In this document: positions 1 to 32,133 of the stretch, piece by piece
Layout of the letters: every line of letters begins with the position of its first letter
Position numbering within the stretch: position 1 is the stretch's first letter
Virus record (IMG/VR): IMGVR_UViG_3300010261_000005
Coordinates: 1 to 32,133 of that record
Reading direction: 5' to 3' (one strand)
Origin: a virus
Taxonomy: Duplodnaviria > Heunggongvirae > Uroviricota > Caudoviricetes
DNA length: 32,133 nt
The notes under the pieces: generated by a model
The model's database searches: none
Seen by the model: only the letters and a program-made list of their open reading frames with translations
What the model was told of the DNA's origin: nothing
Position numbers and translations under genes: made by a program

Positions 1-1385
1 CAAACCAACTCAAATCTTTTATTGCCGACCGCCAATTATGATTGTATTTAATGTCACTAGCTTTTTCCAGCCAAGCATCGCCCTGCCCTTCATCTTTTTC
101 AAAACCCAAAATACCCTCTCGCTGGAAAAACCCCCTATAAATAACAGGTGTAGCATAAGTTGTATTCTGTGAATTTTGGCAGATAAAATTATATATCCAG
201 AATGAATCTGGATAATAACTTAATGCAAATTTTATAGCATACGCACTGTAATAATTATTGAGCTTCATATCTTCCATCACCGCTCGCTGTATACAGCACC
301 ATAACTTATCGTGATCGTTCTGTTTGTTATAGCAAGCAAGTAACCACTCCAGGGCATTATGGCGACATTCCTGAAATTGTGCGTGCTGAGCAATGTTCTC
401 TGCTAAGTCGATTGCATGTTGTTGATCCTCTGGCGCAATATCCTCAATGCTGACATCACGGTAATCATCCCACCAAAGTAAGAGATCCATATATTCATGC
501 TCTTCGGCAGATAAGTGTTTACAGGTTGCTGAATCCAGCAATTCGGAGATTTCTTTATGCGAACCGCCCCAGCGTGGCATTCGAAACGGTATATATTCAA
601 CAAAAGGATAAAAAGTGTGAGGAAAAATAGTCAGGCAAACAGCAAGCCAATATTTTTGCCCGCCATCGTTATCATACTCAGGAAGTATATTGGGGCGAGG
701 CAAAACGGGGCATATTGCATCCTCAAACGAAAGTCCGGAATACGCCATCAACGCTTCCACTTCTTGCGGGGAGCGGCGGTGATAATTTTTCAGTGCGATC
801 ATTAATGGTATTCCTGCGACACTATCACCGTTAAGGTGTGCCGCCAGCCAGGCTGGCTGACCAAATACTTTTGAGTTGGTGCTGGTAAGTAATGCAGCCA
901 TCCATTGTCGTGGGTCACAATCAATTGCTTTAAGTGTAGCGATGACCATTTGTTCATTACATGCACCAGCACAAAGCCACATTGCATGTGTGGTATCATT
1001 TGCCCAGCCATAACTGCGATATAACCATGCACGGTGATTCCAGTATTGTGCTTCGGCAAGCCAGGCATGTGTAGAATGAGGTCTTGCTTGCTGCCAGGTT
1101 TTAATGAGTCTTAAACCTTCTGTTCCGGCATCAACTAGCGTGTTCATATCATAAAAATAGTTGCACATTTGGGTCCAGGATAAAAAATAGCGCTTTTCAG
1201 CCTGACGAGAAGTGAAACTCTCCTGTAATGCCTGGTTATAAATTTCATCTAGTTCCTGATAACGTTTTTCTTGTAACATATAAGGAATATTTGCGATTTG
1301 CCATTTTCTCTCAAGAGTATTAAGTGGCATTTTTTGGTCACACATCTTTTGCATTGCACTGAGTAAACGAGCATCCTGTTCCATA
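1..1385 (-). CDS. Hypothetical helical protein, C-terminus beyond window start (at least 461 aa)
   Basis: Hand translation of the minus strand gives an uninterrupted frame from ATG at 1385..1383 (MEQDARLLSAMQKM...) to position 1 with no stop; AAGGA RBS about 7 nt upstream. Absent from the ORF track, presumably because its stop lies outside the window. Start sits 10 nt after the stop of the upstream gene, so operon-like. Product not recognised. Confidence 0.6.
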
Positions 1386-1394
1386 GATATCCTT

Positions 1395-2111
1395 TTAATT
1401 AGGTTCAAAAATTTTAAATTCATTCCACGGCAATTTTTTCCAGTTACTGGATGGATCTTTCAACCATGCAGTGACTTCCTTTAAATCACGGTTCGCAGTG
1501 GCGACGGGTGTATCGTATATCATTAACCATTTTTGTCGGGCGCGAACATAAGCACTGGCATAATCTTCCCATGAAGCGAAACAATCTTGTGCTCTTTGAG
1601 CATTCAGTAATAACACTATCCAGGCCTGGTTTTCATCGCACCAGCCGAAACCGGCGATGCAACGAGTTAAAAAAGCAGTGCGCATACAGTCAAACGCCAG
1701 CGCATCCAGGACCTGGCCTTGTGCTGCCAGCTGTTCGTAAAAATCATGTGGAGAATTACCAAGCCCTGTAGCCCAGCGTTGTAATATAACGCCAATTTGT
1801 TGGTGGAAATCTTCGTTGCTTTGGTAAGTTTCTGTTCCTAACTCTTGTTTAACCTGTAGTGCAAGTTGTTGACGCTTATCATCAGTCAACTTTAAATCTA
1901 ACGTGAAGCCATTTACTGGCAGTCCATTACGACGAGCAACTATATCACCAATTGCTAATGCCCACTTACGTCTCTTTGTTGCTCGTCTTTTGTCCTTGAG
2001 TAGATCCTTTTCTTTTTCTTTAGCAAGAAAAGCATCGATTAGTGGTTTGTTTTTTTTGTATCTATAGATAAAAATAAATATTGCGACCAGGAGAACAATG
2101 ATAAGACTCAT
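1395..2111 (-). CDS. Hypothetical protein with N-terminal transmembrane helix, possibly DUF1266-like
   Basis: 238-aa ORF; N-terminus MSLIIVLLVAIFIFIYRYKKNK is a hydrophobic helix followed by a basic stretch. Start ATG overlaps the stop of the upstream 407-aa gene (TAATG). The DUF1266 assignment is from memory only. Confidence 0.55.
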   Translation of the reverse strand: MSLIIVLLVAIFIFIYRYKKNKPLIDAFLAKEKEKDLLKDKRRATKRRKWALAIGDIVARRNGLPVNGFTLDLKLTDDKRQQLALQVKQELGTETYQSNEDFHQQIGVILQRWATGLGNSPHDFYEQLAAQGQVLDALAFDCMRTAFLTRCIAGFGWCDENQAWIVLLLNAQRAQDCFASWEDYASAYVRARQKWLMIYDTPVATANRDLKEVTAWLKDPSSNWKKLPWNEFKIFEPN

Positions 2112-3334
2112 TATTTTTTAACCTCTGACAGGGGTAAGTAATGAGATGTCTGTAATGTCAAACTCTCTATCTCAAAGGAAATATTGCTGATATTTTGACC
2201 TGCAAATTGCGGATGCCACTCAGCGCCAGGGAATAACATTTCCGCAGAAGTAGCAACTATAGGGTCAATAGCATTAAGATAATGTAACTTATCAGGTGCG
2301 CTGTGTAACAGTAACCACTGCAACTCCACCGAAGGAGTTGCAAAGTGTTCTAATAAATGAAAGTTATTATGTAGTACACTTAGTAAGAAACTGGTTTCGT
2401 ATACTTCCGTTACATATTTCCACCCCTGATGCTCCGGTGTATTTTCATAAACAATACCCATACCTTCACAATCACTATGTCGAACTGCTTGTGGTGACAA
2501 CATCTGCAAAAGAGATAAAACATTGTCCGCATATTTTTTTACTGGATGACGATTTTGCTTACCTTTTATTTGATCAATTTTCAGTGAATCACCGATAACA
2601 TTAAGGGCAATAGTAACATGAGGAATATTATTGTTATCACGCAAACTGAATAACCGTAATTTATGTTGCTCAATTTGATTTGCATAATACTCGCCATAAC
2701 CACCGGTAAGATTTTTTCGATCATCAAACTGACCTACACAATGTTGCATATGCCATGATTCATAAGCCATCTCACGACGAAGGTTCGAATGACTGGCATC
2801 AAACTCAACAACTTTTCCGTCTGGCACATCAAGTATTAACTTTACGGTATTTTGTTCACTCGGTTGCCACCCTTTCTCGCGCCGTTGAAGCATTTTTTCA
2901 TGCTCTTCTTCACGCATTCTGAATGCGGCGTAGCAGGTTATGCGCTGTAGTTTTGATTCCAGACGGGTACCACATTTCCTGGAAAGAAATTCCACCAACT
3001 CTCGTTCTTTGGTTAATATTTGTTGATGATCGGTTTCGATATAATAAACTGTCGAAGTTGATACTGAGGCATTATTAAACTTCGATACCAGCCATTCCGG
3101 GAGTACATCATCATTTTTATTAAACAGTGAATATTCTGCTAGCGAGTTAATCTGTTGCGCCATTGGAAAGTCACTAATTAGCCATCGATAAAAATGGTTC
3201 AGCAACCATTTTTGGATGGTCTCATTATCCTGGCGACACAGACTTCTTTGCAAAATTGCTGTTTTTACTTCCGGGGCATTGATTACATCCCTTGCATTAT
3301 AATTTTGGTGAATATTCCCATTCATAACATCCAT
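2111..3334 (-). CDS. Hypothetical protein (407 aa), first gene of a three-gene minus-strand operon
   Basis: Long ORF with an AT-rich 5' intergenic region (3335..3549); translationally coupled to the next gene. No family recognised. Confidence 0.55.
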   Translation of the reverse strand: MDVMNGNIHQNYNARDVINAPEVKTAILQRSLCRQDNETIQKWLLNHFYRWLISDFPMAQQINSLAEYSLFNKNDDVLPEWLVSKFNNASVSTSTVYYIETDHQQILTKERELVEFLSRKCGTRLESKLQRITCYAAFRMREEEHEKMLQRREKGWQPSEQNTVKLILDVPDGKVVEFDASHSNLRREMAYESWHMQHCVGQFDDRKNLTGGYGEYYANQIEQHKLRLFSLRDNNNIPHVTIALNVIGDSLKIDQIKGKQNRHPVKKYADNVLSLLQMLSPQAVRHSDCEGMGIVYENTPEHQGWKYVTEVYETSFLLSVLHNNFHLLEHFATPSVELQWLLLHSAPDKLHYLNAIDPIVATSAEMLFPGAEWHPQFAGQNISNISFEIESLTLQTSHYLPLSEVKK

Positions 3335-3812
3335 CCGTGTTTATTATATCACTCAAGAAAATAATTAATGAATATAGATTTTTTATCTAAATCATCATGG
3401 TTGCAGGTACATACTCAAGTAAGCCACTCTAGAAAATAACGTAAACTCAATAGTGGCAACGTCACAAACTTTGAAAGTTATGTCTTATATTTGCAGTTTC
3501 TTTTAGTGAATAACTGAGATAAATGAAATTATTTTACATCCTCAATGATTCAGGCTGCAAGAGGACGGCAAATATATTCATAATTATCAGGGGATGAGCA
3601 TTCAGGAAAGTGGTCAATATCGTCAACTTTCTCTGTTATCACTACATGAAGATTTCGTGCAGGTACTCCCTTCTCTGCCACTTGCCCCCTCACATTTACA
3701 CTGGAGCCAACCCCGCCGATTGCGCTACAATGCCCGCCCTTAAAGTGGGGGCACTCCCCTAACCGCTTCATCAGGTGAAGCGGATCTGACCTGTCATCAG
3801 AACGAGAGAATT

Positions 3813-5174
3813 ATGTTTAAACCGGAACTCCTTTCCCCGGCGGGAACGCTGAAAAATATGCGTTACGCTTTCGCTTATGGCGCGGATGCTGTTTATGCGG
3901 GCCAGCCACGTTACTCCCTGCGTGTGCGCAACAACGAATTCAACCACGAAAATCTTCAGCTCGGCATCAATGAAGCCCACGCGCTGGGGAAAAAGTTTTA
4001 TGTCGTGGTCAACATTGCACCGCACAACGCCAAGCTGAAAACCTTTATTCGTGACCTGAAACCGGTGGTGGAAATGGGGCCGGATGCGCTGATTATGTCC
4101 GATCCAGGGCTGATTATGCTGGTGCGTGAACACTTCCCGGAAATGCCAATCCACCTCTCGGTACAGGCTAACGCCGTAAACTGGGCGACGGTGAAATTCT
4201 GGCAGCAAATGGGTCTGACCCGCGTGATCCTCTCTCGCGAACTGTCACTGGAAGAGATTGAAGAGATCCGCAATCAGGTGCCGGATATGGAGATCGAAAT
4301 CTTCGTTCACGGCGCGCTGTGCATGGCCTACTCCGGTCGCTGCCTGCTCTCTGGCTATATCAACAAGCGCGACCCGAACCAGGGCACCTGCACCAACGCC
4401 TGCCGCTGGGAGTACAACGTCCAGGAAGGGAAAGAAGATGACGTCGGCAACATCGTACACAAGTACGAGCCGATTCCGGTGCAAAATGTTGAGCCGACGC
4501 TGGGTATCGGCGCGCCAACCGACAAAGTGTTTATGATCGAAGAAGCCCAGCGTCCGGGCGAGTATATGACCGCGTTTGAAGATGAGCACGGCACTTACAT
4601 CATGAACTCGAAAGATCTGCGCGCCATCGCCCATGTTGAACGCCTGACCAAAATGGGCGTGCATTCGCTGAAAATCGAAGGCCGTACCAAATCTTTCTAC
4701 TATTGCGCACGCACCGCGCAGGTTTACCGTAAAGCTATCGATGACGCCGCTGCGGGCAAACCGTTCGATACCAGCCTGCTGGAAACGCTGGAAGGTCTGG
4801 CGCATCGTGGCTATACCGAAGGTTTCCTGCGTCGTCATACCCACGACGATTATCAGAACTACGAATACGGTTATTCGGTTTCTGACCGCCAGCAGTTTGT
4901 TGGTGAGTTTACCGGTGAGCGCAAGGGGGAGCTCGCGGCGGTAGCGGTGAAAAATAAATTCTCCGTTGGCGACAGCCTTGAGCTGATGACGCCGCAAGGC
5001 AACATTAACTTTACCCTTGAGCATATGGAAAACGCCAAAGGTGAAGCTATGCCGGTCGCACCAGGCGATGGTTATACTGTGTGGCTCCCGGTGCCGCAGG
5101 ATCTTGAGCTAAATTACGCGCTGCTGATGCGTAATTTCTCCGGGGAAACCACGCGTAACCCCCACGGTAAGTGA
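3813..5174 (+). CDS. yegQ: U32-family peptidase YegQ (TrhP, tRNA hydroxylation)
   Basis: 453-aa ORF, MFKPELLSPAGTLKNMRYAFAYGADAVYAGQPRYSLRVRNNEF..., recognised as E. coli YegQ including length; GAGAG RBS upstream of ATG. Confidence 0.9.
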   Translation: MFKPELLSPAGTLKNMRYAFAYGADAVYAGQPRYSLRVRNNEFNHENLQLGINEAHALGKKFYVVVNIAPHNAKLKTFIRDLKPVVEMGPDALIMSDPGLIMLVREHFPEMPIHLSVQANAVNWATVKFWQQMGLTRVILSRELSLEEIEEIRNQVPDMEIEIFVHGALCMAYSGRCLLSGYINKRDPNQGTCTNACRWEYNVQEGKEDDVGNIVHKYEPIPVQNVEPTLGIGAPTDKVFMIEEAQRPGEYMTAFEDEHGTYIMNSKDLRAIAHVERLTKMGVHSLKIEGRTKSFYYCARTAQVYRKAIDDAAAGKPFDTSLLETLEGLAHRGYTEGFLRRHTHDDYQNYEYGYSVSDRQQFVGEFTGERKGELAAVAVKNKFSVGDSLELMTPQGNINFTLEHMENAKGEAMPVAPGDGYTVWLPVPQDLELNYALLMRNFSGETTRNPHGK

Positions 5175-5258
5175 TTAATTTCGATTATTTTTCCCGGATG
5201 GAAAATTCTTAGAAACCGATCACATACAGCTGCATTTATTAAGGTTATCATCCGTTTC

Positions 5259-5345
5259 GCTGAAAAACATAACCCATAAAATGCTAGCTGTACCAGGAAC
5301 CACCTCCTTAGCCTGTGTAATCTCCCTTACACGGGCTTATTTTTT
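5259..5345 (+). ncRNA. cyaR: CyaR (RyeE) Hfq-dependent small RNA
   Basis: Sequence gctgaaaaacataacccataaaatgctagctgtaccaggaaccacctccttagcctgtgtaatctcccttacacgggcttatttttt matches the E. coli CyaR sequence as I recall it. Ends in a terminator hairpin (cctgtgtaa / ttacacggg) plus T6. A -10-like TATCAT lies about 8 nt upstream of the 5' end, and a TCACA CRP half-site at about 5220..5224. Confidence 0.8.
5319..5345. other. P2 attachment core (prophage/chromosome junction, locI-type) within the 3' end of cyaR
   Basis: aatctcccttacacgggcttatttttt is the reverse complement of the 27-nt P2 att core AAAAAATAAGCCCGTGTAAGGGAGATT as I recall it. It lies between chromosomal cyaR and phage ogr, the expected junction for a P2 prophage. 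Confidence 0.65.
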
Positions 5346-5409
5346 ACGCGTAATTCAATGAAATAAAAGGATTTATTTCTGGTCACGTCCACACATTGAC
5401 CACATCGAC

Positions 5410-5445
5410 AAAAAAAGCCCCTCGACTGAGGGGCTTTCTGTTTGT
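5410..5445. terminator. Bidirectional rho-independent terminator between cyaR and ogr
   Basis: aaaaaaa-GCCCCTC-gact-GAGGGGC-tttctgttt: 7-bp GC stem flanked by an A-run on one side and a T-rich run on the other; 3 nt downstream of the ogr stop. Confidence 0.6.
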
Positions 5446-5447
5446 AA

Positions 5448-5666
5448 CTACATCCACATAATTTGCTGCCCTGACGGCAACGGGTGCGGCCTTACGGCGT
5501 GGACTTCTCCCGGCTTCACGATGTATCTCTGTACCGACTCATAGGTGATGAACGTGGCGCTGCAATTCACGTTCTGGCACTGGTGATAACGCTCTTTTGT
5601 CGTGTCAGTGATATAGCGGCTTGTACGCGCATGTGCGGCATGCTGGCATAAAGGACAATGAAACAT
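5448..5666 (-). CDS. ogr: Late transcription activator Ogr (zinc finger)
   Basis: 72-aa product MFHCPLCQHAAHARTSRYITDTTKERYHQCQNVNCSATF... with a Cys4 arrangement; start chosen at the ATG with AAGAGGTG RBS (ORF track start at 5729 is an upstream extension). Confidence 0.9.
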   Translation of the reverse strand: MFHCPLCQHAAHARTSRYITDTTKERYHQCQNVNCSATFITYESVQRYIVKPGEVHAVRPHPLPSGQQIMWM

Positions 5667-5747
5667 CGCGAGCACCTCTTCCGGTTTTGTTGATGGTGTC
5701 ATTTTAGTTAATTTATCCTTATAAAACAAATAGATAAAATAAAAACA

Positions 5748-10859: not shown

Positions 10860-12050
10860 TTAATTGCTGTTAACCGAAGTGACCAGATTTGCCAGGTATT
10901 TATCGGTAATACGCTGGCGTAGGGTCAGGTTTTCAAGAGGAGGCACCGGTGTATAGTCGTAGTCGATATACAGTTTTCCGGCCTTGAGGGTTTCCGCATC
11001 GTTGGATTCTTCGCTGAACCAGCAGGTCGCATCCACGATATAGCCGTTTGTTTTCAGCTCACGGAATTTGGCATTGATGCCGTCAACGATGTCGCGAATC
11101 AGCGTTGCAGTGATGGGCTTGTCCACCGCCCACATGTGCGCCTCAGCCATCGTGTCGGCCAGCACCTGCGCGGTGCGGGTGTAGTTTTCAAAGAGGAACA
11201 GCGGGTCATCAGAGCAGGTACGGTTACCCCAGAAGCGGAAACCGTCACGGCGAATCAGCGTTGTGACACCTGACTCGTTCAACAGGTCAGCATCGGTGCC
11301 GGACTCCTGCAAATCCCAGAATACAGAGGCACTGATGCCGGTAACACCGTTTACCCCGACGTTGGACAGCGTTTTATGCCAGCCCTGCTCCTGGTCGATT
11401 TTTGCACGCAGACCCAGCGCACGGGCGGTGGCATACGCGGTGGCGGTGGTACTGGTGACCGTATCCCATGCGAGGAAATCCGGCCAGATAACCATCAGTT
11501 CACGCTGGCTGAAATTCTGGCGGTAGGCTTTCACCTCAGAAATGGTTTTACAGCCCCATGCGCTGATATACCCGAAAGCGCGCAGCTTCTGACAGACTGA
11601 TGCCAGTGCGACGGCAACCTCTTTGGTGTCCAGTCCCGGCACACCGAGAATGCGCGGCTTAACACCGGTTACCGACTCCGCCGCCAGCAGGGCTTTCAGT
11701 CCGGTGTACTGACCGTTTTCGTCAGTGGTGCCGATGATATTGGAAACGGTCTGCGCGAGTTTCGTTTCCTCGTCGTCGCCGGTGCCGTCTTCCACACGCA
11801 CGACAACGGTGACCGGTTTTGACTGGTCGGCGATGGCCTGCAACGATGCCGCCAGCGTGCCTTTTTTACCGGCCTTTGCAATTGCGCTCTGCACATTGGT
11901 AATCAGCACCGGTTTATTGAGGGGGAAGGTTTCCGCATCCGCATCGCTGGCCGTGCAGACCATGCCGACAATGGCCGTGGATACAGTGGAAATGACGCGG
12001 GTGCCGTCGTTAATCTCCAGCACCTGCACGCCATGATGATAGTCACTCAT
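10860..12050 (-). CDS. FI: Contractile tail sheath protein FI
   Basis: 396 aa, P2 gpFI length and position. Confidence 0.9.
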   Translation of the reverse strand: MSDYHHGVQVLEINDGTRVISTVSTAIVGMVCTASDADAETFPLNKPVLITNVQSAIAKAGKKGTLAASLQAIADQSKPVTVVVRVEDGTGDDEETKLAQTVSNIIGTTDENGQYTGLKALLAAESVTGVKPRILGVPGLDTKEVAVALASVCQKLRAFGYISAWGCKTISEVKAYRQNFSQRELMVIWPDFLAWDTVTSTTATAYATARALGLRAKIDQEQGWHKTLSNVGVNGVTGISASVFWDLQESGTDADLLNESGVTTLIRRDGFRFWGNRTCSDDPLFLFENYTRTAQVLADTMAEAHMWAVDKPITATLIRDIVDGINAKFRELKTNGYIVDATCWFSEESNDAETLKAGKLYIDYDYTPVPPLENLTLRQRITDKYLANLVTSVNSN

Positions 12051-12450
12051 CCGTTTAACTCCGTGGTTAATGGGTGCAACTATTTTCTGTTGGGCAGTGC
12101 ATGAGACGCTATTTGACCTGGCTGGTCAGTGGATGAAACAACAGATAAAGAAAAGGCGGGCAATCAGCTCGCCTGTCCTGATTTGTACACACTCATTTTC
12201 CGACTGACAGTTTACATAGCCCAAACGCTATCAAATCTGACAGCCTGCTTTGAGCGAGTAACTAAATTTGATTTAAATAAATTATAAGGATTCAAATATT
12301 ATTGGCACAAATTCCTGAGATGCAAACAGTCACACTAAGTGTTCAAACAAGGTTCTGGACTACGGCTAACTCATCAGTTAAGTTTGTTTCCGACCTGTCG
12401 TTTCTTCCCTGTCAGGAGTCACTTTTCGTGTTATTTTTTAAGGATGTTTT
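12051..12450. promoter_or_regulatory. Divergent intergenic region: late promoter for FI (minus) and promoter for the Z/fun-locus cargo gene (plus)
   Basis: 400-bp non-coding, increasingly AT-rich gap between divergently oriented genes; AAGGA RBS 7 nt before the 12451 ATG. No individual promoter hexamers could be assigned with confidence. Confidence 0.4.
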
Positions 12451-13230
12451 ATGAGTAATGAAACACAATCATTCCTTAGTCAATTGCTAATATCCATAAT
12501 CTCTATATCTTTAGGGTCATTTCTTTTTGCTGGAATCCTAGAGAGCTACAAAAAAGACCAAGATCTTCAGGAGGAGTTTATAAAGGATTACTTTAGGCCA
12601 ATGATGAAATTACAAAGTTCTTGTTCATCTTCACATAATGAACTATTTCTAAAGTATGGAGAGTTATCTGCTTCTTATCAGCTCATGTATAATGAAATAG
12701 TACATATGGCAATGAGCCCTGATTCAGAATTAGGACAACATTATGAAGTTCTCCCGATGTCTCTTATTAAAACAAATGAAGAGTTAAAAAAAAGAGTTGA
12801 AGATCTTGAAATGACGGTAAAAAAATGCAATATCGATTTATTCCTTAAGTACGAAGAGCTTGCATTAGTTACTGGTTCATATCCAGAGTTTAAGAGACTG
12901 GCGAAAAAACACACTGACACAATTAACTCCATCTATTCAGAAAGACAAAAAAAAGCAAAGGAAAATGCAAAAAATATAGACCCTGATCAACTAATTCCAT
13001 TGATGCGGAAATATATTGCCATGGATCCACACACCAATGTAAACAAATCCATGCTTGCCAGTGAAATAGATAACATATCTAAACTAACAACACAGCATAA
13101 TTTGATAATGGCAGAATATGAGGAGTTAATTTTCAAAGAAGATAATGATTTATTTATAACTCTTCATGATCTTTATGCAATCAAAATTAGTGAAAAGTAT
13201 TCAGGTGGATTTATCAGTTGGATATTTTAA
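12451..13230 (+). CDS. Cargo protein at the P2 Z/fun variable locus: membrane-anchored coiled-coil protein of unknown function (candidate anti-phage/abortive-infection factor)
   Basis: 259-aa ORF in markedly AT-rich DNA between FI and G, in the Z/fun orientation (divergent from FI, convergent with G). Residues about 8..30 (FLSQLLISIISISLGSFLFAGIL) form a predicted TM helix; the remainder is charged and helical (K/E-rich). No P2 backbone equivalent recognised. Confidence 0.75.
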   Translation: MSNETQSFLSQLLISIISISLGSFLFAGILESYKKDQDLQEEFIKDYFRPMMKLQSSCSSSHNELFLKYGELSASYQLMYNEIVHMAMSPDSELGQHYEVLPMSLIKTNEELKKRVEDLEMTVKKCNIDLFLKYEELALVTGSYPEFKRLAKKHTDTINSIYSERQKKAKENAKNIDPDQLIPLMRKYIAMDPHTNVNKSMLASEIDNISKLTTQHNLIMAEYEELIFKEDNDLFITLHDLYAIKISEKYSGGFISWIF

Positions 13231-25341: not shown

Positions 25342-25514
25342 TGTCAGGAGTCCTGAATAGTGATTAGAGGAGTCACATGTCGGCATCAGTTTCCCGACGA
25401 TGCGCATCCTCCGCCATCAGTCCCGGATGGCTTATCACTGACACAACAGCACCTTAGCGAATCGCGGGGCGCGACTCAGTAGCCTTGCCGTGTATTCATC
25501 ACGGCGAGGTATTC
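25342..25514. promoter_or_regulatory. Divergent late promoter region (P_O leftward, P_P rightward), presumed Ogr-dependent
   Basis: 173-bp non-coding gap between divergently transcribed O and P, as in P2. I could not locate an exact TGT-N12-ACA activator dyad by eye, so this is positional inference only. Confidence 0.4.
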
Positions 25515-27287
25515 ATGACCATCACCACAGACACCACTCTTTTACACGACCCGCGTCGTCAGGCGGCGCTGCTGTACTGGCAGGGGTTTTCCGTGCCGCA
25601 GATTGCCGCCATGTTGCAGATGAAACGCCCGACGGTGCAGAGCTGGAAACAGCGCGACGGCTGGGACAGTGTTGCCCCCATCAGCCGTGTCGAAATGAGT
25701 CTGGAAGCGCGGCTGACCCGGCTCATCATCAAACCGCAGAAAACCGGCGGTGACTTCAAGGAAATTGACCTGCTCGGACGCCAGATTGAACGACTGGCAC
25801 GGGTAAACCGCTACAGCCAGACCGGCAACGAGGCAGACCTTAATCCGAACATCGCTAACCGCAACAAAGGCGGGCGTCGCAAACCGAAAAAGAATTTTTT
25901 CAGCGACGAGGCCATCGAAAAGCTGGAGCAGATTTTCTTTGAGCAGTCTTTCGAATATCAGTTGCACTGGTATCGCGCCGGGCTTGAGCACCGCATCCGC
26001 GATATCCTGAAATCCCGCCAGATTGGCGCGACGTTTTATTTTTCCCGCGAGGCGCTGCTGCGCGCCCTGAAAACCGGTCATAACCAGATTTTTCTGTCGG
26101 CCAGTAAAACGCAGGCGTATGTGTTCCGCGAATACATCATCGCCTTTGCCCGGCTGGTTGACGTTGACCTGACCGGTGACCCGATTGTCCTGGGCAATAA
26201 CGGCGCAAAACTGATTTTTCTCGGCACCAACTCCAACACCGCACAGAGCCATAACGGCGACCTGTACGTCGACGAGATTTTCTGGATCCCGAATTTTCAG
26301 GTACTGCGTAAGGTGGCATCAGGTATGGCCTCACAGAGTCACCTGCGCTCGACCTATTTCTCCACCCCGTCCACGCTGGCGCACGACGCCTACCCGTTCT
26401 GGTCGGGTGAACTGTTCAACCGGGGACGCGCCAGCGCCGCCGAACGCGTGGAAATCGACGTCAGTCATAACGCCCTTGCCGGAGGTCTTCTCTGTGCGGA
26501 CGGCCAGTGGCGGCAGATTGTCACCATTGAGGATGCCCTGAAAGGCGGCTGCACGCTGTTCGACATTGAGCAGCTCAAACGTGAAAACAGCGCCGACGAT
26601 TTTAAAAACCTGTTCATGTGTGAATTTGTTGACGACAAGGCGTCGGTGTTCCCGTTCGAGGAGCTGCAACGCTGCATGGTCGACACGCTGGAAGAATGGG
26701 AAGACTATGCGCCGTTTGCCGCCAATCCGTTCGGCTCCCGCCCGGTATGGATTGGTTACGACCCGTCACACCGTGGCGACAGCGCCGGATGCGTGGTACT
26801 GGCACCGCCGGTGGTGGCCGGTGGCAAATTCAGAATACTTGAGCGTCACCAGTGGAAAGGTATGGACTTTGCCACTCAGGCGGAATCCATCCGCAAACTC
26901 ACCGAAAAATACAACGTCGAATACATCGGTATTGATGCCACCGGCCTCGGTGTCGGCGTGTTCCAGCTCGTGCGCTCGTTCTATCCCGCCGCACGCGACA
27001 TCCGCTACACGCCGGAAATGAAAACCGCAATGGTGCTCAAGGCAAAAGACGTTATCCGCCGAGGCTGTCTGGAATATGACGTCAGCGCCACCGACATCAC
27101 CAGCTCGTTTATGGCTATCCGCAAGACCATGACCAGCAGCGGACGCAGTGCCACCTATGAGGCCAGCCGCAGCGAGGAAGCCAGCCACGCCGACCTCGCC
27201 TGGGCGACCATGCATGCCCTGTTAAATGAGCCACTCACCGCCGGTATCAGCACCCCGCTGACATCCACCATTCTGGAGTTTTACTGA
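25515..27287 (+). CDS. P: Terminase large (ATPase) subunit P
   Basis: 590 aa from MTITTDTTLLHDPRRQAALLYWQGFSVPQIAAM... (P2 gpP length), GAGGT RBS; the track ORF start at 25485 is an extension. Confidence 0.9.
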   Translation: MTITTDTTLLHDPRRQAALLYWQGFSVPQIAAMLQMKRPTVQSWKQRDGWDSVAPISRVEMSLEARLTRLIIKPQKTGGDFKEIDLLGRQIERLARVNRYSQTGNEADLNPNIANRNKGGRRKPKKNFFSDEAIEKLEQIFFEQSFEYQLHWYRAGLEHRIRDILKSRQIGATFYFSREALLRALKTGHNQIFLSASKTQAYVFREYIIAFARLVDVDLTGDPIVLGNNGAKLIFLGTNSNTAQSHNGDLYVDEIFWIPNFQVLRKVASGMASQSHLRSTYFSTPSTLAHDAYPFWSGELFNRGRASAAERVEIDVSHNALAGGLLCADGQWRQIVTIEDALKGGCTLFDIEQLKRENSADDFKNLFMCEFVDDKASVFPFEELQRCMVDTLEEWEDYAPFAANPFGSRPVWIGYDPSHRGDSAGCVVLAPPVVAGGKFRILERHQWKGMDFATQAESIRKLTEKYNVEYIGIDATGLGVGVFQLVRSFYPAARDIRYTPEMKTAMVLKAKDVIRRGCLEYDVSATDITSSFMAIRKTMTSSGRSATYEASRSEEASHADLAWATMHALLNEPLTAGISTPLTSTILEFY

Positions 27288-28321
27288 TGAGCAAGAAAAA
27301 AGGGAAAACACCGCGACCTGCGGCAAAAAAAATGACTGCCAGCGCCCCGAAAATGGAGGCATTCACCTTTGGTGAGCCGGTGCCGGTACTCGACCGCCGT
27401 GACATTCTGGATTACGTCGAGTGCATCAGTAACGGCAGATGGTATGAACCGCCGGTCAGCTTTACCGGTCTGGCAAAAAGCCTGCGTGCTGCCGTGCATC
27501 ACAGCTCCCCGATTTACGTCAAACGCAATATTCTGGCCTCGACATTTATCCCGCATCCGTGGCTTTCCCAGCAGGATTTCAGCCGCTTTGTGCTGGATTT
27601 TCTGGTGTTCGGTAATGCGTTTCTGGAAAAGCGTTACAGCACCACCGGTAAGGTCATCAGACTGGAAACCTCACCGGCAAAATATACCCGCCGTGGTGTG
27701 GAAGAGGATGTTTACTGGTGGGTGCCGTCCTTCAACGAGCCGACAGCCTTCGCGCCCGGCTCCGTGTTTCACCTGCTGGAGCCGGATATTAATCAGGAGC
27801 TGTACGGCCTGCCGGAATATCTCAGCGCCCTTAACTCTGCCTGGCTGAATGAGTCAGCCACGCTGTTCCGCCGCAAGTATTACGAAAATGGCGCACATGC
27901 CGGATACATCATGTACGTCACCGATGCCGTGCAGGACCGCAACGATATCGAAATGCTTCGCGAAAACATGGTTAAGTCGAAAGGCCGCAATAACTTTAAA
28001 AATCTGTTTCTCTATGCCCCACAGGGGAAAGCCGACGGCATTAAAATTATCCCGCTCAGTGAAGTGGCAACGAAGGACGATTTTTTTAATATCAAAAAAG
28101 CCAGCGCCGCTGACCTGCTGGACGCGCACCGCATCCCCTTTCAGTTGATGGGGGGCAAGCCGGAGAACGTCGGGTCGCTGGGTGATATTGAAAAAGTGGC
28201 AAAGGTCTTTGTCCGCAATGAGCTTATCCCGTTACAGGACAGGATTCGGGAAATAAACGGCTGGCTCGGTCAGGAAGTCATCCGCTTTAAAAACTACTCA
28301 CTGGACACTGACAACGACTGA
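27287..28321 (+). CDS. Q: Portal (capsid vertex) protein Q
   Basis: 344 aa, P2 gpQ length; ATG overlaps the P stop. Confidence 0.9.
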   Translation: MSKKKGKTPRPAAKKMTASAPKMEAFTFGEPVPVLDRRDILDYVECISNGRWYEPPVSFTGLAKSLRAAVHHSSPIYVKRNILASTFIPHPWLSQQDFSRFVLDFLVFGNAFLEKRYSTTGKVIRLETSPAKYTRRGVEEDVYWWVPSFNEPTAFAPGSVFHLLEPDINQELYGLPEYLSALNSAWLNESATLFRRKYYENGAHAGYIMYVTDAVQDRNDIEMLRENMVKSKGRNNFKNLFLYAPQGKADGIKIIPLSEVATKDDFFNIKKASAADLLDAHRIPFQLMGGKPENVGSLGDIEKVAKVFVRNELIPLQDRIREINGWLGQEVIRFKNYSLDTDND

Positions 28322-28325
28322 ACAT

Positions 28326-28348
28326 CGCCGCCTGCGGGCGGCTTTTTT
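28326..28348 (+). terminator. Rho-independent terminator after Q
   Basis: CGCCGCC-tgcg-GGCGGC followed by TTTTTT, 5 nt after the Q stop. Confidence 0.65.
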
Positions 28349-28432
28349 ACACCCTCACATGCTCACCACCGCACAAAACACCCCGCAGACACACCAACGC
28401 CCCGGCGCACAATCCAAACGCCGTCACGACGC

Positions 28433-28461
28433 GCTGAGACGCTGAGACGCTGAGACGCTGA
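28433..28461. repeat. Tandem 8-bp direct repeat (GCTGAGAC x3 plus partial) adjacent to cos
   Basis: gctgagacgctgagacgctgagacgctga read directly from the sequence. Confidence 0.8.
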
Positions 28462-28493: not shown

Positions 28494-28512
28494 GTGCTTT
28501 CCCCGCCTCGCC
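28494..28512. other. cos site (19-nt cohesive end sequence)
   Basis: gtgctttccccgcctcgcc is the reverse complement of GGCGAGGCGGGGAAAGCAC, which I recall as the P2 cohesive end; located just beyond Q as in P2. Confidence 0.65.
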
Positions 28513-28653
28513 CGCCCGCTTCATGGGGCGGTTTTAATGCAGGTGCATCATCCCCCCGGCAAGCGCCTGTTCTGGTGCTCGCTGTCAAAAGATATATTTG
28601 AAAATGAATGCAAATTTATGCACCTAATGCAGGCGAGGCTAAAAAGAACATCT

Positions 28654-29976
28654 TTAGTTTGTTTTTTTAACTCCACTGTATTCCGCTATCATCCTCTCAA
28701 CCGCTGGAAGCAACTCAGCAGGAACGCAAATAGACCTATCTGCCTTTCCAACATCTTTTGGCGTTTTGTAAGTACCATTATAATTAAGGACGCATTCTTT
28801 AAGAATTTCAAAAAGAGAAACAATAGGGTCCACGCCATAGCTATCAATAAACTTTCGATAGCTATCATTATCAGATAACGATGAAATATCTCCATGAACA
28901 AACTTACACCTAAGCTCATAGATTATTCCTATTTTTGAATCAATATCAATAATTTTCGCCGCATCTCTGCAAACACCGCCAATAATTGAATTTTTATTAC
29001 CATTATTGGTTCCATACATAGCATCCAATGCTATAAATTGATTCAAAAACCTTTCACGTTTGTCATCCCTCCACCCGTGCGCTATAAAGGAAAGAGCAGA
29101 CAACATCCTTTTATCAGGTGATGAAAGTATTTTTGTAAGTATCGCCAAGGCTGAATCCGTTATATTTAAATTATATACAGACGGAATATTCACCCGAAAC
29201 TCACTTTCATGATATTTCCCGACACCAAAAGACTCAACTAGATTATTAACAGCAACTCGATTAATCGCAAAAGGATTATCAACCGCAAGACATAAAGCTC
29301 CAAACAAACTATCAAACATTTTCACCGCTTTATCCTCTGATGAAGCATATGCCACCACCAAGCAGGATTTTGACTGTCGAAAATATTTCCCAATTGGTTT
29401 ATGCCGCATATATTCATCATCATAAAAATCAACAGGAACCTTGATGTCAGTTTTGTCTTTAATATCAGAAAGTAATTCCACCCCTAGCCCCGGGCCATAT
29501 AAAAATAAATTTTCTCTAAGCTCAAGCTTCCCATCAAAGCCAGCACACCCAAGATTATAAATATACGGACAGGATTTTATTCGTGAAAGCATATAATACT
29601 TAAACATCTCACTAAGATTTTTTCTATGAACTTGCGTTATAATATCATCAACACAAATCTTATCAGGATTAAGCGACAGAAAATCAGCATCAATGCGATT
29701 GAAGGCTTCAGAACAAAAACCTAACAATAATCTTTTCGCATTGTGAAGGTCACTTATACCTAATTGGGGGCCATATGCTTTTAATAACCTACTAGCACAT
29801 TTTGCAATCTCCTCATCATCATATGCAAGCCAAAAAACAAAATCTTCTAATGCTTTACCGACTTGGATACAAGGCTGCTCCTTACCATGACTATAAAAAA
29901 AACTTTTGCATAATTTGTTTATCATGCCATTAGAGAACGCAACCTTCATAGATACTTCATCCCTTAACGCACTCAT
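28654..29976 (-). CDS. Cargo protein at the P2 tin/old variable locus: 440-aa protein of unknown function with C-terminal Rx4H (HEPN-like) motif; candidate anti-phage defence protein
   Basis: Long ORF in strongly AT-rich DNA between the A stop (30060) and cos, co-directional with A (tin-like orientation); AAGGA RBS upstream of ATG 29976. Residues 356..361 RCKFVH fit the HEPN Rx4-6H signature (coords about 28894..28911). No resemblance to P2 tin or old recognised. Confidence 0.75.
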   Translation of the reverse strand: MSALRDEVSMKVAFSNGMINKLCKSFFYSHGKEQPCIQVGKALEDFVFWLAYDDEEIAKCASRLLKAYGPQLGISDLHNAKRLLLGFCSEAFNRIDADFLSLNPDKICVDDIITQVHRKNLSEMFKYYMLSRIKSCPYIYNLGCAGFDGKLELRENLFLYGPGLGVELLSDIKDKTDIKVPVDFYDDEYMRHKPIGKYFRQSKSCLVVAYASSEDKAVKMFDSLFGALCLAVDNPFAINRVAVNNLVESFGVGKYHESEFRVNIPSVYNLNITDSALAILTKILSSPDKRMLSALSFIAHGWRDDKRERFLNQFIALDAMYGTNNGNKNSIIGGVCRDAAKIIDIDSKIGIIYELRCKFVHGDISSLSDNDSYRKFIDSYGVDPIVSLFEILKECVLNYNGTYKTPKDVGKADRSICVPAELLPAVERMIAEYSGVKKTN

Positions 29977-30059
29977 CGATAATAATTCCTTATAAGTTAT
30001 TAATGCACGACTACTAAAGCATTGCTTCAGATTTGTTAATGTATCATGATGCCATCAGT

Positions 30060-32133
30060 TTAAGAAAACATCACCCAATCGTCTTTTACAGCATAACTAA
30101 ACCGCTCACCGTCATAAATTACTGTTGCCCCGCGCGCCAACGCCTCAAGCTCCCATCGCTGCGGCCTGATACCGTTCTGAGCAAGGTCAACGCGGATACG
30201 GGTAATTTGCATTCTTTCCGACCGGGTCAGTCTGGCCGATGGTGCAATTTCATGTGGTTTTAACGGGCTTCCGTTTCTTTGCTGACGATTTGGCGTTCTC
30301 AGGCCGTGTTTTAATGCGCCCCTGAGCGCCCTCACAACCTCCGGGTCATTCCATTCGATAACACCGTCATCAACCAGATTAAGCACTGCTGCGGCGTGCT
30401 CAGAAGGTGTGGGAGCCGGTAACGAAGTATCACAACCGGTGACCTTTCCACAGTTATTGACAGGACTCCGAGGCGCGGCGATGCCGCTTTTTAAAGTCAA
30501 AGGCTCAACGACCGGAACTTTCGGCACAATGCGCCAGTCCGTCGTTCTGGTGATATGAATATGACGCGCGCCGAGATGCGGCGCGTAAATGCCGACCACT
30601 CTCTCGACTTCTTCCTCGTACTCGTTGACGTCATCCGACGGGCTACGGGCAACCCTGACAGTCTGACAATCGCGCGGGACATTTGCCCCACCCTGCGCGC
30701 TGATATACAACGCAAAATCACCACTGTCTGCGGCAGCGCGAGCAGCCTCGACGCGTTCGTCAAACTCATCAGCAATACTGACGCCGCGAGGCAATTTGCG
30801 TAGTTCACGGTAAGCCCCCATTGTCGGCAGGCCAACCGTTTTAAATTGCGGGATGCGCCACGTTGACGCCCATGCGGTAACAGCCGCGGCAGTATCTTTA
30901 AGCGGCTTACCGGTATCGTTATCGAGCTGACCATCCAGTGCATAGCCGTCGATATTTTTTGAAATGTATTTCGCGATATATCCCGCAGCACCGCCCCGGT
31001 TAAGGTGCTTTGCCTGAAAACGGTTTCGCGCGGCTCCTCTTTCGTCACCATCCTCTTTGAGCGCATAGCGACGCATGATTTCGATAATCTGGTTACGCTG
31101 GCGTGGATTACAAAAAAGCATCATATGCCAGTGCGGCGTTCCGTCGTGGTGTGGCTCGACGACACGCAAACCGTAGACCTGTAAATCATTATCCTTGAAT
31201 GCCGTGCGCATCAGGCTCCAGATACGGCAGAGATAACGCTGCGCATCCTTTGGATTAAATGCCTCATCATTCCAGCCGTGATTAAGCTGGACGGTTTTAC
31301 TTTCGCCTTTTCCGACCTGACGTGTCGGGTGATACTTTGACGGCGTGGTCAGCGTGATAAACATCCCCACATCCCCCTCTGCGGCGGCGTAACGCTCAAT
31401 ACCGGCAATGGTGTTCATCAGCTCCATCCGGCGAATTTCAGGATTAGAAATACTGCCCATCACCTTACTGATAAGGTCGATGCGCTCGCCGGTTTCCCTG
31501 TTTTCAAGGTCACACGATTTAAGAAATTCCAGATTTGCCTGGCGGCGTGCACGCACATCACGAATGGCATGTTTACTGGCATAAGGAGAACGGTCTTTAT
31601 TCACCTCCCCGACAGCAATCAGTAACGCCTCATGCCAGCGCATACGCTGGCCTTTAAGCTGATGAGTCCACCACTCATCGTTAAACAGACGGGCAATGGC
31701 AGAATATGCCTGCCTCGTGGTCATCTGTCCTTTACGGTATTTTTTCCAGTAGAGCGGGGAAATATTGAAAGCACGTGCAGCGCCAGCAACATGACCATAG
31801 AGGTGAGCCTGCGCCTCATCCGTAAACAGCGATTCTTTCTCGCCATGCGCATCCACCCAGGCATCGCAGAGTTCCTCATACATCATGAAAAGCTGTGATG
31901 AGATACGGGCGGCAAACTTTTTCAGCTCCTTGTCATTCATCCCCGGCAGGCGCGCATACTGGTCGCGCTCTGCCAGAAACAGCAACGACGCGTCGGCGTT
32001 CATTTCATGACGCTGATTCACACGCTCAATGCGCGGCCATAAACGACGCTGAAAAGTGGATGTGAGGAAATAAAACCCGTGCACCGGGCTTTTATTGCGC
32101 CGGATGTAGTCATAGCGTGAAGTAAACAGCGAG
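30060..32133 (-). CDS. A: Replication initiation protein A (rolling-circle endonuclease), 5' end beyond window
   Basis: P2 gpA-like sequence; the frame remains open from 32084 to the window edge (hand-translated ...SLFTSRYDYIRRNKSP-VHGFYFLTS), so the true start lies outside (P2 gpA is 761 aa). The track start at 32084 is a GTG, not the real start. Confidence 0.85.
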   Translation of the reverse strand, partial: SLFTSRYDYIRRNKSPVHGFYFLTSTFQRRLWPRIERVNQRHEMNADASLLFLAERDQYARLPGMNDKELKKFAARISSQLFMMYEELCDAWVDAHGEKESLFTDEAQAHLYGHVAGAARAFNISPLYWKKYRKGQMTTRQAYSAIARLFNDEWWTHQLKGQRMRWHEALLIAVGEVNKDRSPYASKHAIRDVRARRQANLEFLKSCDLENRETGERIDLISKVMGSISNPEIRRMELMNTIAGIERYAAAEGDVGMFITLTTPSKYHPTRQVGKGESKTVQLNHGWNDEAFNPKDAQRYLCRIWSLMRTAFKDNDLQVYGLRVVEPHHDGTPHWHMMLFCNPRQRNQIIEIMRRYALKEDGDERGAARNRFQAKHLNRGGAAGYIAKYISKNIDGYALDGQLDNDTGKPLKDTAAAVTAWASTWRIPQFKTVGLPTMGAYRELRKLPRGVSIADEFDERVEAARAAADSGDFALYISAQGGANVPRDCQTVRVARSPSDDVNEYEEEVERVVGIYAPHLGARHIHITRTTDWRIVPKVPVVEPLTLKSGIAAPRSPVNNCGKVTGCDTSLPAPTPSEHAAAVLNLVDDGVIEWNDPEVVRALRGALKHGLRTPNRQQRNGSPLKPHEIAPSARLTRSERMQITRIRVDLAQNGIRPQRWELEALARGATVIYDGERFSYAVKDDWVMFS

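Follow-up and report, generated by a model that had tools for sequence, protein, structure and literature searches.

The window analyzed in this work is the whole 32,133-nt sequence of the IMG/VR virus record IMGVR_UViG_3300010261_000005 (Caudoviricetes), which carries a P2-like prophage and part of its host chromosome. We examined a minus-strand gene that is the sole gene in the slot between the gpA-like gene and the cos site, i.e., the tin/old slot of P2. The product of this gene is probably a HEPN ribonuclease with a role in anti-phage defense. The open reading frame (ORF) list confirmed a 440-aa, AT-rich ORF after gene A, as described in a first-pass annotation made from the sequence alone. 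The ORF starts with ATG at 83 bp 3' of the gpA-like stop codon, on the same strand, and its end is 141 bp from the P2/P4-type cos. The GC content of the gene is 0.358 vs 0.521 in the remaining window, and this AT-rich composition points to horizontally acquired cargo. The start codon is ambiguous (M1 or M10). Many homologs begin at the M10 equivalent (MKV...), and residues 1 to 7 have predicted local distance difference test (pLDDT) values below 50 in the AlphaFold2 model. A start at M10 would give a protein of 431 aa. The gene and its parts are as follows:

28654..29976, minus strand: cargo coding sequence, 440 aa (possibly 431), from the ORF list, the homologs, and PHROG 23812.
29122..29976, minus strand: N-terminal mixed alpha/beta region (residues 1-285), a putative sensor/regulatory part without a recognized fold.
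28774..29121, minus strand: predicted HEPN domain (residues ~286-401), with helices 289-298, 306-321, 345-359, and 364-401 and an insert helix at 327-338.
28894..28911, minus strand: Rx4H motif RCKFVH (R356 to H361), from translation and conservation.

Translation placed RCKFVH at residues 356-361, as had been noticed at first pass, and this is the sole Rx4-6H in the protein. The motif alone is not above chance: of 20,000 shuffles of the protein, 28% had one or more Rx4H and 63% one or more Rx4-6H, so that only conservation and fold lend it significance. Among 22 aligned close homologs R356 is invariant and H361 is present in 21 (one homolog, P0026, has Y at this position). When 102 relatives with 12 to 21% identity to the query were aligned, R356 and H361 were the only two invariant columns; D318 (helix 2), G322, and G362 each occur in 90% or more of these distant relatives. 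Judged from the alignments, the two invariant columns are the signature of a catalytic pair. It is very improbable that the HEPN domain is a catalytically inactive module for binding of a nucleotide, ligand, or protein (as in nucleotidyltransferase fusions), or that a functionless ORF acquired the motif by chance. The shuffling result, the C or S after R356, and the Y in P0026 would fit such an explanation, but an R and an H as the sole invariant positions in 102 divergent relatives speak against it, since HEPN families without catalysis typically lose the motif (PMC3710099). A spurious ORF is excluded by full-length conservation, as the entire ORF is kept from E. coli to Vibrio, Shewanella, and Idiomarina at 44 to 72% identity.

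The AlphaFold2 model (pLDDT 79, predicted template modeling score 0.69) consists of a mixed alpha/beta part from residue 1 to ~285 followed by an all-helical part at ~286-401. Helix 345-359 has R356 in its last turn, and H361 follows in the loop 360-363. In the HEPN superfamily the motif is placed where helix 3 ends and the following loop starts, and a conserved acidic residue is found in helix 2 (Anantharaman et al., 2013; PMC3710099). R356 and H361 occupy this motif position, and D318 in helix 306-321 would be the acidic residue, within a FIALDA(L/M)(Y/F)G block, which is not of the Ex3[KR] form. The structures closest to the model are HepT toxins (PDB 8xdj, 7ae2, and 5yep); other matches are Csm6, sacsin, AbiV, Cas13, and LAS1L, and the sequence identity is 7 to 14%. 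ApeA coordinates (9HX*) were not among the structure matches. From the model, residues ~286-401 very likely form a HEPN four-helix domain with a catalytic R/H pair. The HEPN reading of the first-pass annotation thus gains support from the AlphaFold2 fold and the conservation of R356/H361. It had correctly put a HEPN domain in the C-terminal part, but at residues 340-440 instead of ~286-401, and the non-HEPN region that it saw in front of the domain is present with a length of ~285 rather than ~350 residues.

Database searches gave 26 homologs with 44 to 99% identity in Citrobacter, Enterobacter, Serratia, Vibrio, Shewanella, Pseudoalteromonas, and Idiomarina. With 1.84 billion representative proteins as the target, a profile search returned 233 relatives. 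Most of them are ~400-460 aa in length, and the part in common is only the C-terminal ~110 residues. A full-length match to PHROG 23812 (function unknown) is the only hidden Markov model (HMM) match of the query. A search of a large database with the profile of the 102 sequences, which was restricted by its word prefilter, returned no proteins outside the known family. When PDB sequences were searched with profiles of both alignments, there was no match at E ≤ 10, and neither the 50,697 phage records nor the 72,556 plasmids searched with tblastn gave a homolog.

The gene is located in the gpA-gpQ region, which is an experimentally validated defense hotspot (Rousset et al., 2022, PMC9122126). 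The features that delimit the slot in the window are the following:

30060..32084, minus strand: gpA-like replication endonuclease; the listed ORF starts at GTG and the true start may be further upstream.
29977..30059, minus strand: 83-bp spacer from the gpA stop codon to the cargo ATG, with an AAGGA Shine-Dalgarno-like sequence inside.
28494..28512, minus strand: P2/P4-type cos cohesive-end sequence GGCGAGGCGGGGAAAGCAC (exact match), boundary of the cargo slot.
27287..28321, plus strand: portal protein Q, the other hotspot boundary, from the ORF and the S65EC annotation 'phage portal protein'.
25485..27287: terminase P, beyond cos.

The gpA assignment is based on the syntenic gene of E. coli S65EC, which is annotated 'replication endonuclease', and on the Phage_GPA Pfam domain in an Enterobacter locus. 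The cos sequence GGCGAGGCGGGGAAAGCAC is also found in the P4 constructs of Rousset Table S2. At 28432..28461, with the terminator hairpin of the portal gene (28327-28342) on one side and cos on the other, there is a perfect 8-nt tandem repeat (CGCTGAGA, 3.8 copies). It might belong to the region recognized by the terminase, or it might simply be a spacer prone to slippage.

The first-pass annotation considered the gene unrecognized and a candidate for a novel system, and this part did not hold. The identical protein WP_032190067 (46 complete E. coli genomes) carries the RefSeq/PGAP name 'HEPN domain-containing protein'. The same accession is listed as 'HEPN_Apea' in Table S5A of Rousset et al., and Table S5B gives the sequence as P2-hotspot system #45, which consists of a single protein and occurs 84 times in 18,150 loci (PMC9122126). 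Position (gpA-gpQ, next to cos), accession, and sequence all agree with membership in this hotspot. The label 'HEPN_Apea' was derived from HH-suite profile matching (Rousset et al., 2022, PMC9122126). System #45 is not among the systems cloned in that study (PMC9122126), and WP_032190067 was found in no paper's main text. Identity with pFR103, a cloned P2-hotspot system named 'Putative HEPN', was rejected because the sequence is different. Neither the kind of system nor the hotspot nor the HEPN assignment is new to the literature or databases.

The label raises the question of a relationship to ApeA, which is a single-protein defense system (Gao et al., 2020; Ec1ApeA, WP_000706972.1) with a C-terminal HEPN RNase whose catalytic Arg is essential (bioRxiv 10.64898/2026.01.26.701840, 10.64898/2026.03.20.713152). 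According to the same two preprints, ApeA has a large N-terminal non-catalytic part with a sensing pocket, the ligand pocket lying between the N-terminal and HEPN domains, forms doughnut-shaped decamers or dodecamers, and cuts tRNA anticodons or ssRNA phage genomes. Its cues are deoxydinucleotides and phage RNA structure. ApeA is the most probable functional analogue of the protein described here, with infection-activated cleavage of tRNA anticodons or phage RNA. That the 440-aa protein is a true member of the ApeA family and works exactly like ApeA (decamers, ligand pocket, tRNA anticodon or ssRNA genome cleavage) is improbable. The HH-suite label and the same general layout (large N-terminal part and C-terminal HEPN) argue for membership, but neither the query nor its 123 relatives (21 close homologs and 102 distant ones) match Pfam HEPN_Apea (PF18739) or PADLOC models (E ≤ 10 for the query and close homologs, E ≤ 0.01 for the distant ones), and the architecture of ApeA is not found. 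In ApeA the N-terminal and Mid domains are predominantly helical, the HEPN domain is split, with insertions, and spans ~250 residues (Ec2ApeA 335-583), and the catalytic Arg is at 502-521; the present protein has 440 aa, a mixed alpha/beta N-terminal part, and a compact HEPN domain of ~115 residues with the Arg at 356.

Another link to ApeA goes through the P4 hotspot. P4-hotspot system #19 (WP_001276440 family, ~460 aa), also labeled 'HEPN_Apea' by Rousset et al. (2022), is described as 'Likely a RNAse' and is uncharacterized. Like the gene of the window, it is single-gene cargo in a cos-adjacent hotspot of the P2/P4 system, and its C-terminal HEPN domain has an Rx4H followed by G (RSDIAHG in system #19, RCKFVHG here). 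In an hhalign comparison the superfamily profile matched this P4 family (UniRef name 'Apea-like HEPN') with 78% probability (E 1.8e-5) over 259 columns. The match extends ~170 columns upstream of the HEPN core, and R356/H361 are aligned to R394/H399 of the P4 family. This favors ApeA membership, with the reservation that the P4 family itself is below threshold on PF18739 (E 0.016, 16.1 bits vs the 24.4-bit cutoff) and has no PADLOC match. System #19 is located on a P4 satellite whereas the present gene is on a P2 phage, and there is no detectable pairwise similarity (A1 vs A4, only 7.5% probability); the two are different families. The 440-aa protein is best described as belonging to a single-protein HEPN family that is Apea-like but divergent and distinct.

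Two other single-protein HEPN anticodon nucleases were considered, DARNA/PD-T7-3, whose cue is SSB-bound ssDNA (bioRxiv 10.64898/2026.02.22.705581), and the prophage-encoded HepS, whose cue is the tail-tip protein J (PMC13043305). Neither has a sequence or profile match to the 440-aa protein. Identity with DARNA was rejected since DARNA has an N-terminal HEPN (R117x4H122) and a C-terminal ssDNA sensor while the HEPN domain is C-terminal here, and there is no PADLOC match. HepS is a stand-alone HEPN protein of less than 250 aa, and identity was rejected on account of the 440-aa length with a 285-residue N-terminal extension. HepT, the closest in structure, is a ~130-residue toxin controlled by the MNT antitoxin via AMPylation; unlike HepT, the present protein has no partner gene and its HEPN domain is fused to the 285-residue extension. 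P2 Old and Tin occupy the same gpA-cos slot, and their role for the prophage is exclusion of other phages. Old (ABC ATPase and TOPRIM nuclease) and Tin have no HEPN domain and are unrelated to the present protein. Old is described in a 2026 preprint as also acting as an abortive tRNase.

A gene with at least 99% nucleotide identity is found in 46 of 5,426 complete E. coli genomes and is always chromosomal. Several of these E. coli carriers are O25b:H4-ST131 clinical isolates. The gene is at record coordinates 2352-3674 in many assemblies, which indicates that those records start inside or right beside the prophage. In E. coli S65EC no other gene lies between those for the replication endonuclease and the portal of a P2-like prophage near pflA (pflA/ycaD). 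The prophage of the window adjoins yegQ/ogrK, so that the P2-like prophages with this cargo are integrated at two or more sites. An Enterobacter homolog (62% identical) is likewise the sole gene of the gpA-cos slot, and the synteny in S65EC and Enterobacter supports the earlier description of the gene as single self-contained cargo at this hotspot. In Serratia quinivorans a P2-like prophage has a homolog with 53% identity (L009, 8001-9218) in its gpS-gpV (orf30-type) slot, and the neighboring genes are on the other strand. This position indicates that the cargo family was captured independently at two different P2 hotspots.

Outside of P2-like prophages, a Vibrio homolog adjoins a RES-domain gene and a gene pair of a cyclic-oligonucleotide-based anti-phage signaling system (CBASS), a Pseudoalteromonas homolog is found in an integrase-bounded island with SLFN/AlbA_2, DEAD helicase, and Hypoth_Ymh genes, and one distant relative adjoins HsdR (type I restriction-modification, R-M) and an integrase. 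No partner gene is conserved across the examined loci, and the gene is mobile on its own, moving between P2-like prophage cargo slots and gamma-proteobacterial defense/integrative islands. Three Vibrio/metagenomic loci (L002, 8001-10521; L003, 7964-10484; L004, 1271-3791) have a gene for a 222-aa unknown protein upstream and one for a 374-aa HNH_5 protein downstream, and a 198-aa integrase fragment is present at two of the three (L003 and L004). The recurrent Vibrio neighbors suggest a small mobile module. Obligatory partner genes were rejected because the loci of E. coli, Enterobacter, Serratia, and Pseudoalteromonas lack these neighbors.

The neighborhoods bear on the possibility that the protein is a HEPN RNase toxin with a main role other than defense against other phages. 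It could serve in prophage addiction or stabilization, as a stress-responsive growth regulator of the lysogen, or as a P2 lytic factor that shuts off host or competitor RNA after induction by co-transcription with gene A. The gene is co-directional with gpA, 83 bp downstream, with no sigma-70 promoter detected, which fits read-through in an early lytic operon. In addition, HEPN toxins are common in toxin-antitoxin modules, HepT toxins are the closest structures, and P2 hotspots also hold non-defense cargo (PMC9122126). On the other hand, no antitoxin-like partner, RNA repeat array, or Rfam element was found beside the gene, and the Serratia homolog in the other slot and on the opposite strand cannot depend on gpA read-through there. 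Homologs outside prophages are found in defense/integrative islands beside CBASS, RES, and R-M genes, and where single-protein HEPN enzymes carrying a large additional domain have been characterized, they are defense proteins. We consider a main role other than defense to be unlikely. A type III toxin-antitoxin or AbiF-like RNA antitoxin was rejected, as the only tandem repeat (CGCTGAGA, 28432-28461) is located beyond cos and there is no Rfam match.

In the explanation we favor, the sole gpA-cos cargo of the prophage encodes a HEPN ribonuclease that works as a single protein, most likely in anti-phage defense; we give this explanation a probability of about 0.6. By analogy with characterized HEPN defense proteins (ApeA, DARNA/PD-T7-3, HepS, and PrrC), two HEPN domains would dimerize to form a composite, metal-independent RNase site, and the enzyme would stay inactive in a lysogen that is not infected. 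An infection cue (a phage protein, nucleic acid, or small molecule) would be sensed by the N-terminal ~285 residues. Once active, the enzyme would cleave RNA, with tRNA anticodon loops as the foremost candidate; tRNA as the target is put forward only tentatively. Such RNA cleavage would stop translation and block propagation of the superinfecting phage. The anti-phage role, taken for itself, is probable. It is also conceivable, at slightly less than even odds, that the protein and its more than 230 relative clusters constitute a distinct, functional single-protein HEPN defense family missed by PADLOC, Pfam, and NCBIfam, in which the N-terminal module is a new sensor fold and the cue is unlike those of ApeA, DARNA, and HepS.

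A number of points weigh against the defensive HEPN ribonuclease. In HMM scans no model of Pfam, PADLOC, or NCBIfam matched the query, its 21 close homologs, or the 102 distant relatives. The residue after the catalytic R in the HEPN superfamily is polar, mostly N, D, or H (PMC3710099), while in the close family R356 is followed by C or S, which are small and weakly polar. The placement of the putative catalytic site at R356/H361 relies on secondary-structure position and conservation. A promoter scan detected no consensus sigma-70 promoter in the 83-bp spacer, which leaves expression in the lysogen unexplained. About a quarter of the P2 hotspot loci carry non-defense cargo such as partition systems and toxins (PMC9122126), and location alone is thus no proof of defense. 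The cloned 'Putative HEPN' system pFR103 is listed only in Rousset Table S2B (additional tested systems) and not among the validated ones (PMC9122126). Phage-challenge, toxicity, or RNase data for the 440-aa protein or its family were not found in the literature.

The window contains a second AT-rich cargo ORF of 259 aa at 12451..13230 (plus strand), in an island at ~12000-13100 with a GC content of 0.32 to 0.35. It is located in the P2 Z/fun slot between the tail sheath and tail-fibre assembly genes, on the strand opposite to both. The ORF is annotated 'hypothetical protein', and the stretch is found at 80% coverage or more in only 13 of the 5,426 E. coli genomes. This ORF may be another accessory or defense candidate. 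Positions 1..5700 of the window are host chromosome with yegQ (trhP), ogrK, an AT-rich pair of genes for PcfJ-domain and DUF1266 proteins, and a DUF4034 gene.

The family of the 440-aa protein is compact, with one gene of 1.3 kb, and its carriers include clinical ST131 lineages of E. coli. PADLOC, Pfam, and NCBIfam miss it, and surveys of defense repertoires that rely on such models miss it as well. The conceptual gain is incremental, and the protein is a reasonable candidate for follow-up mainly for its sensor domain, its trigger, and a family missed by the tested HMM libraries. The most informative question is what the N-terminal domain, which is without a known fold, senses. If the protein is confirmed as a defense protein, it would add one more trigger-effector pair to the single-protein HEPN nucleases (ApeA, DARNA, and HepS) and would fill one unannotated entry of the P2 hotspot.

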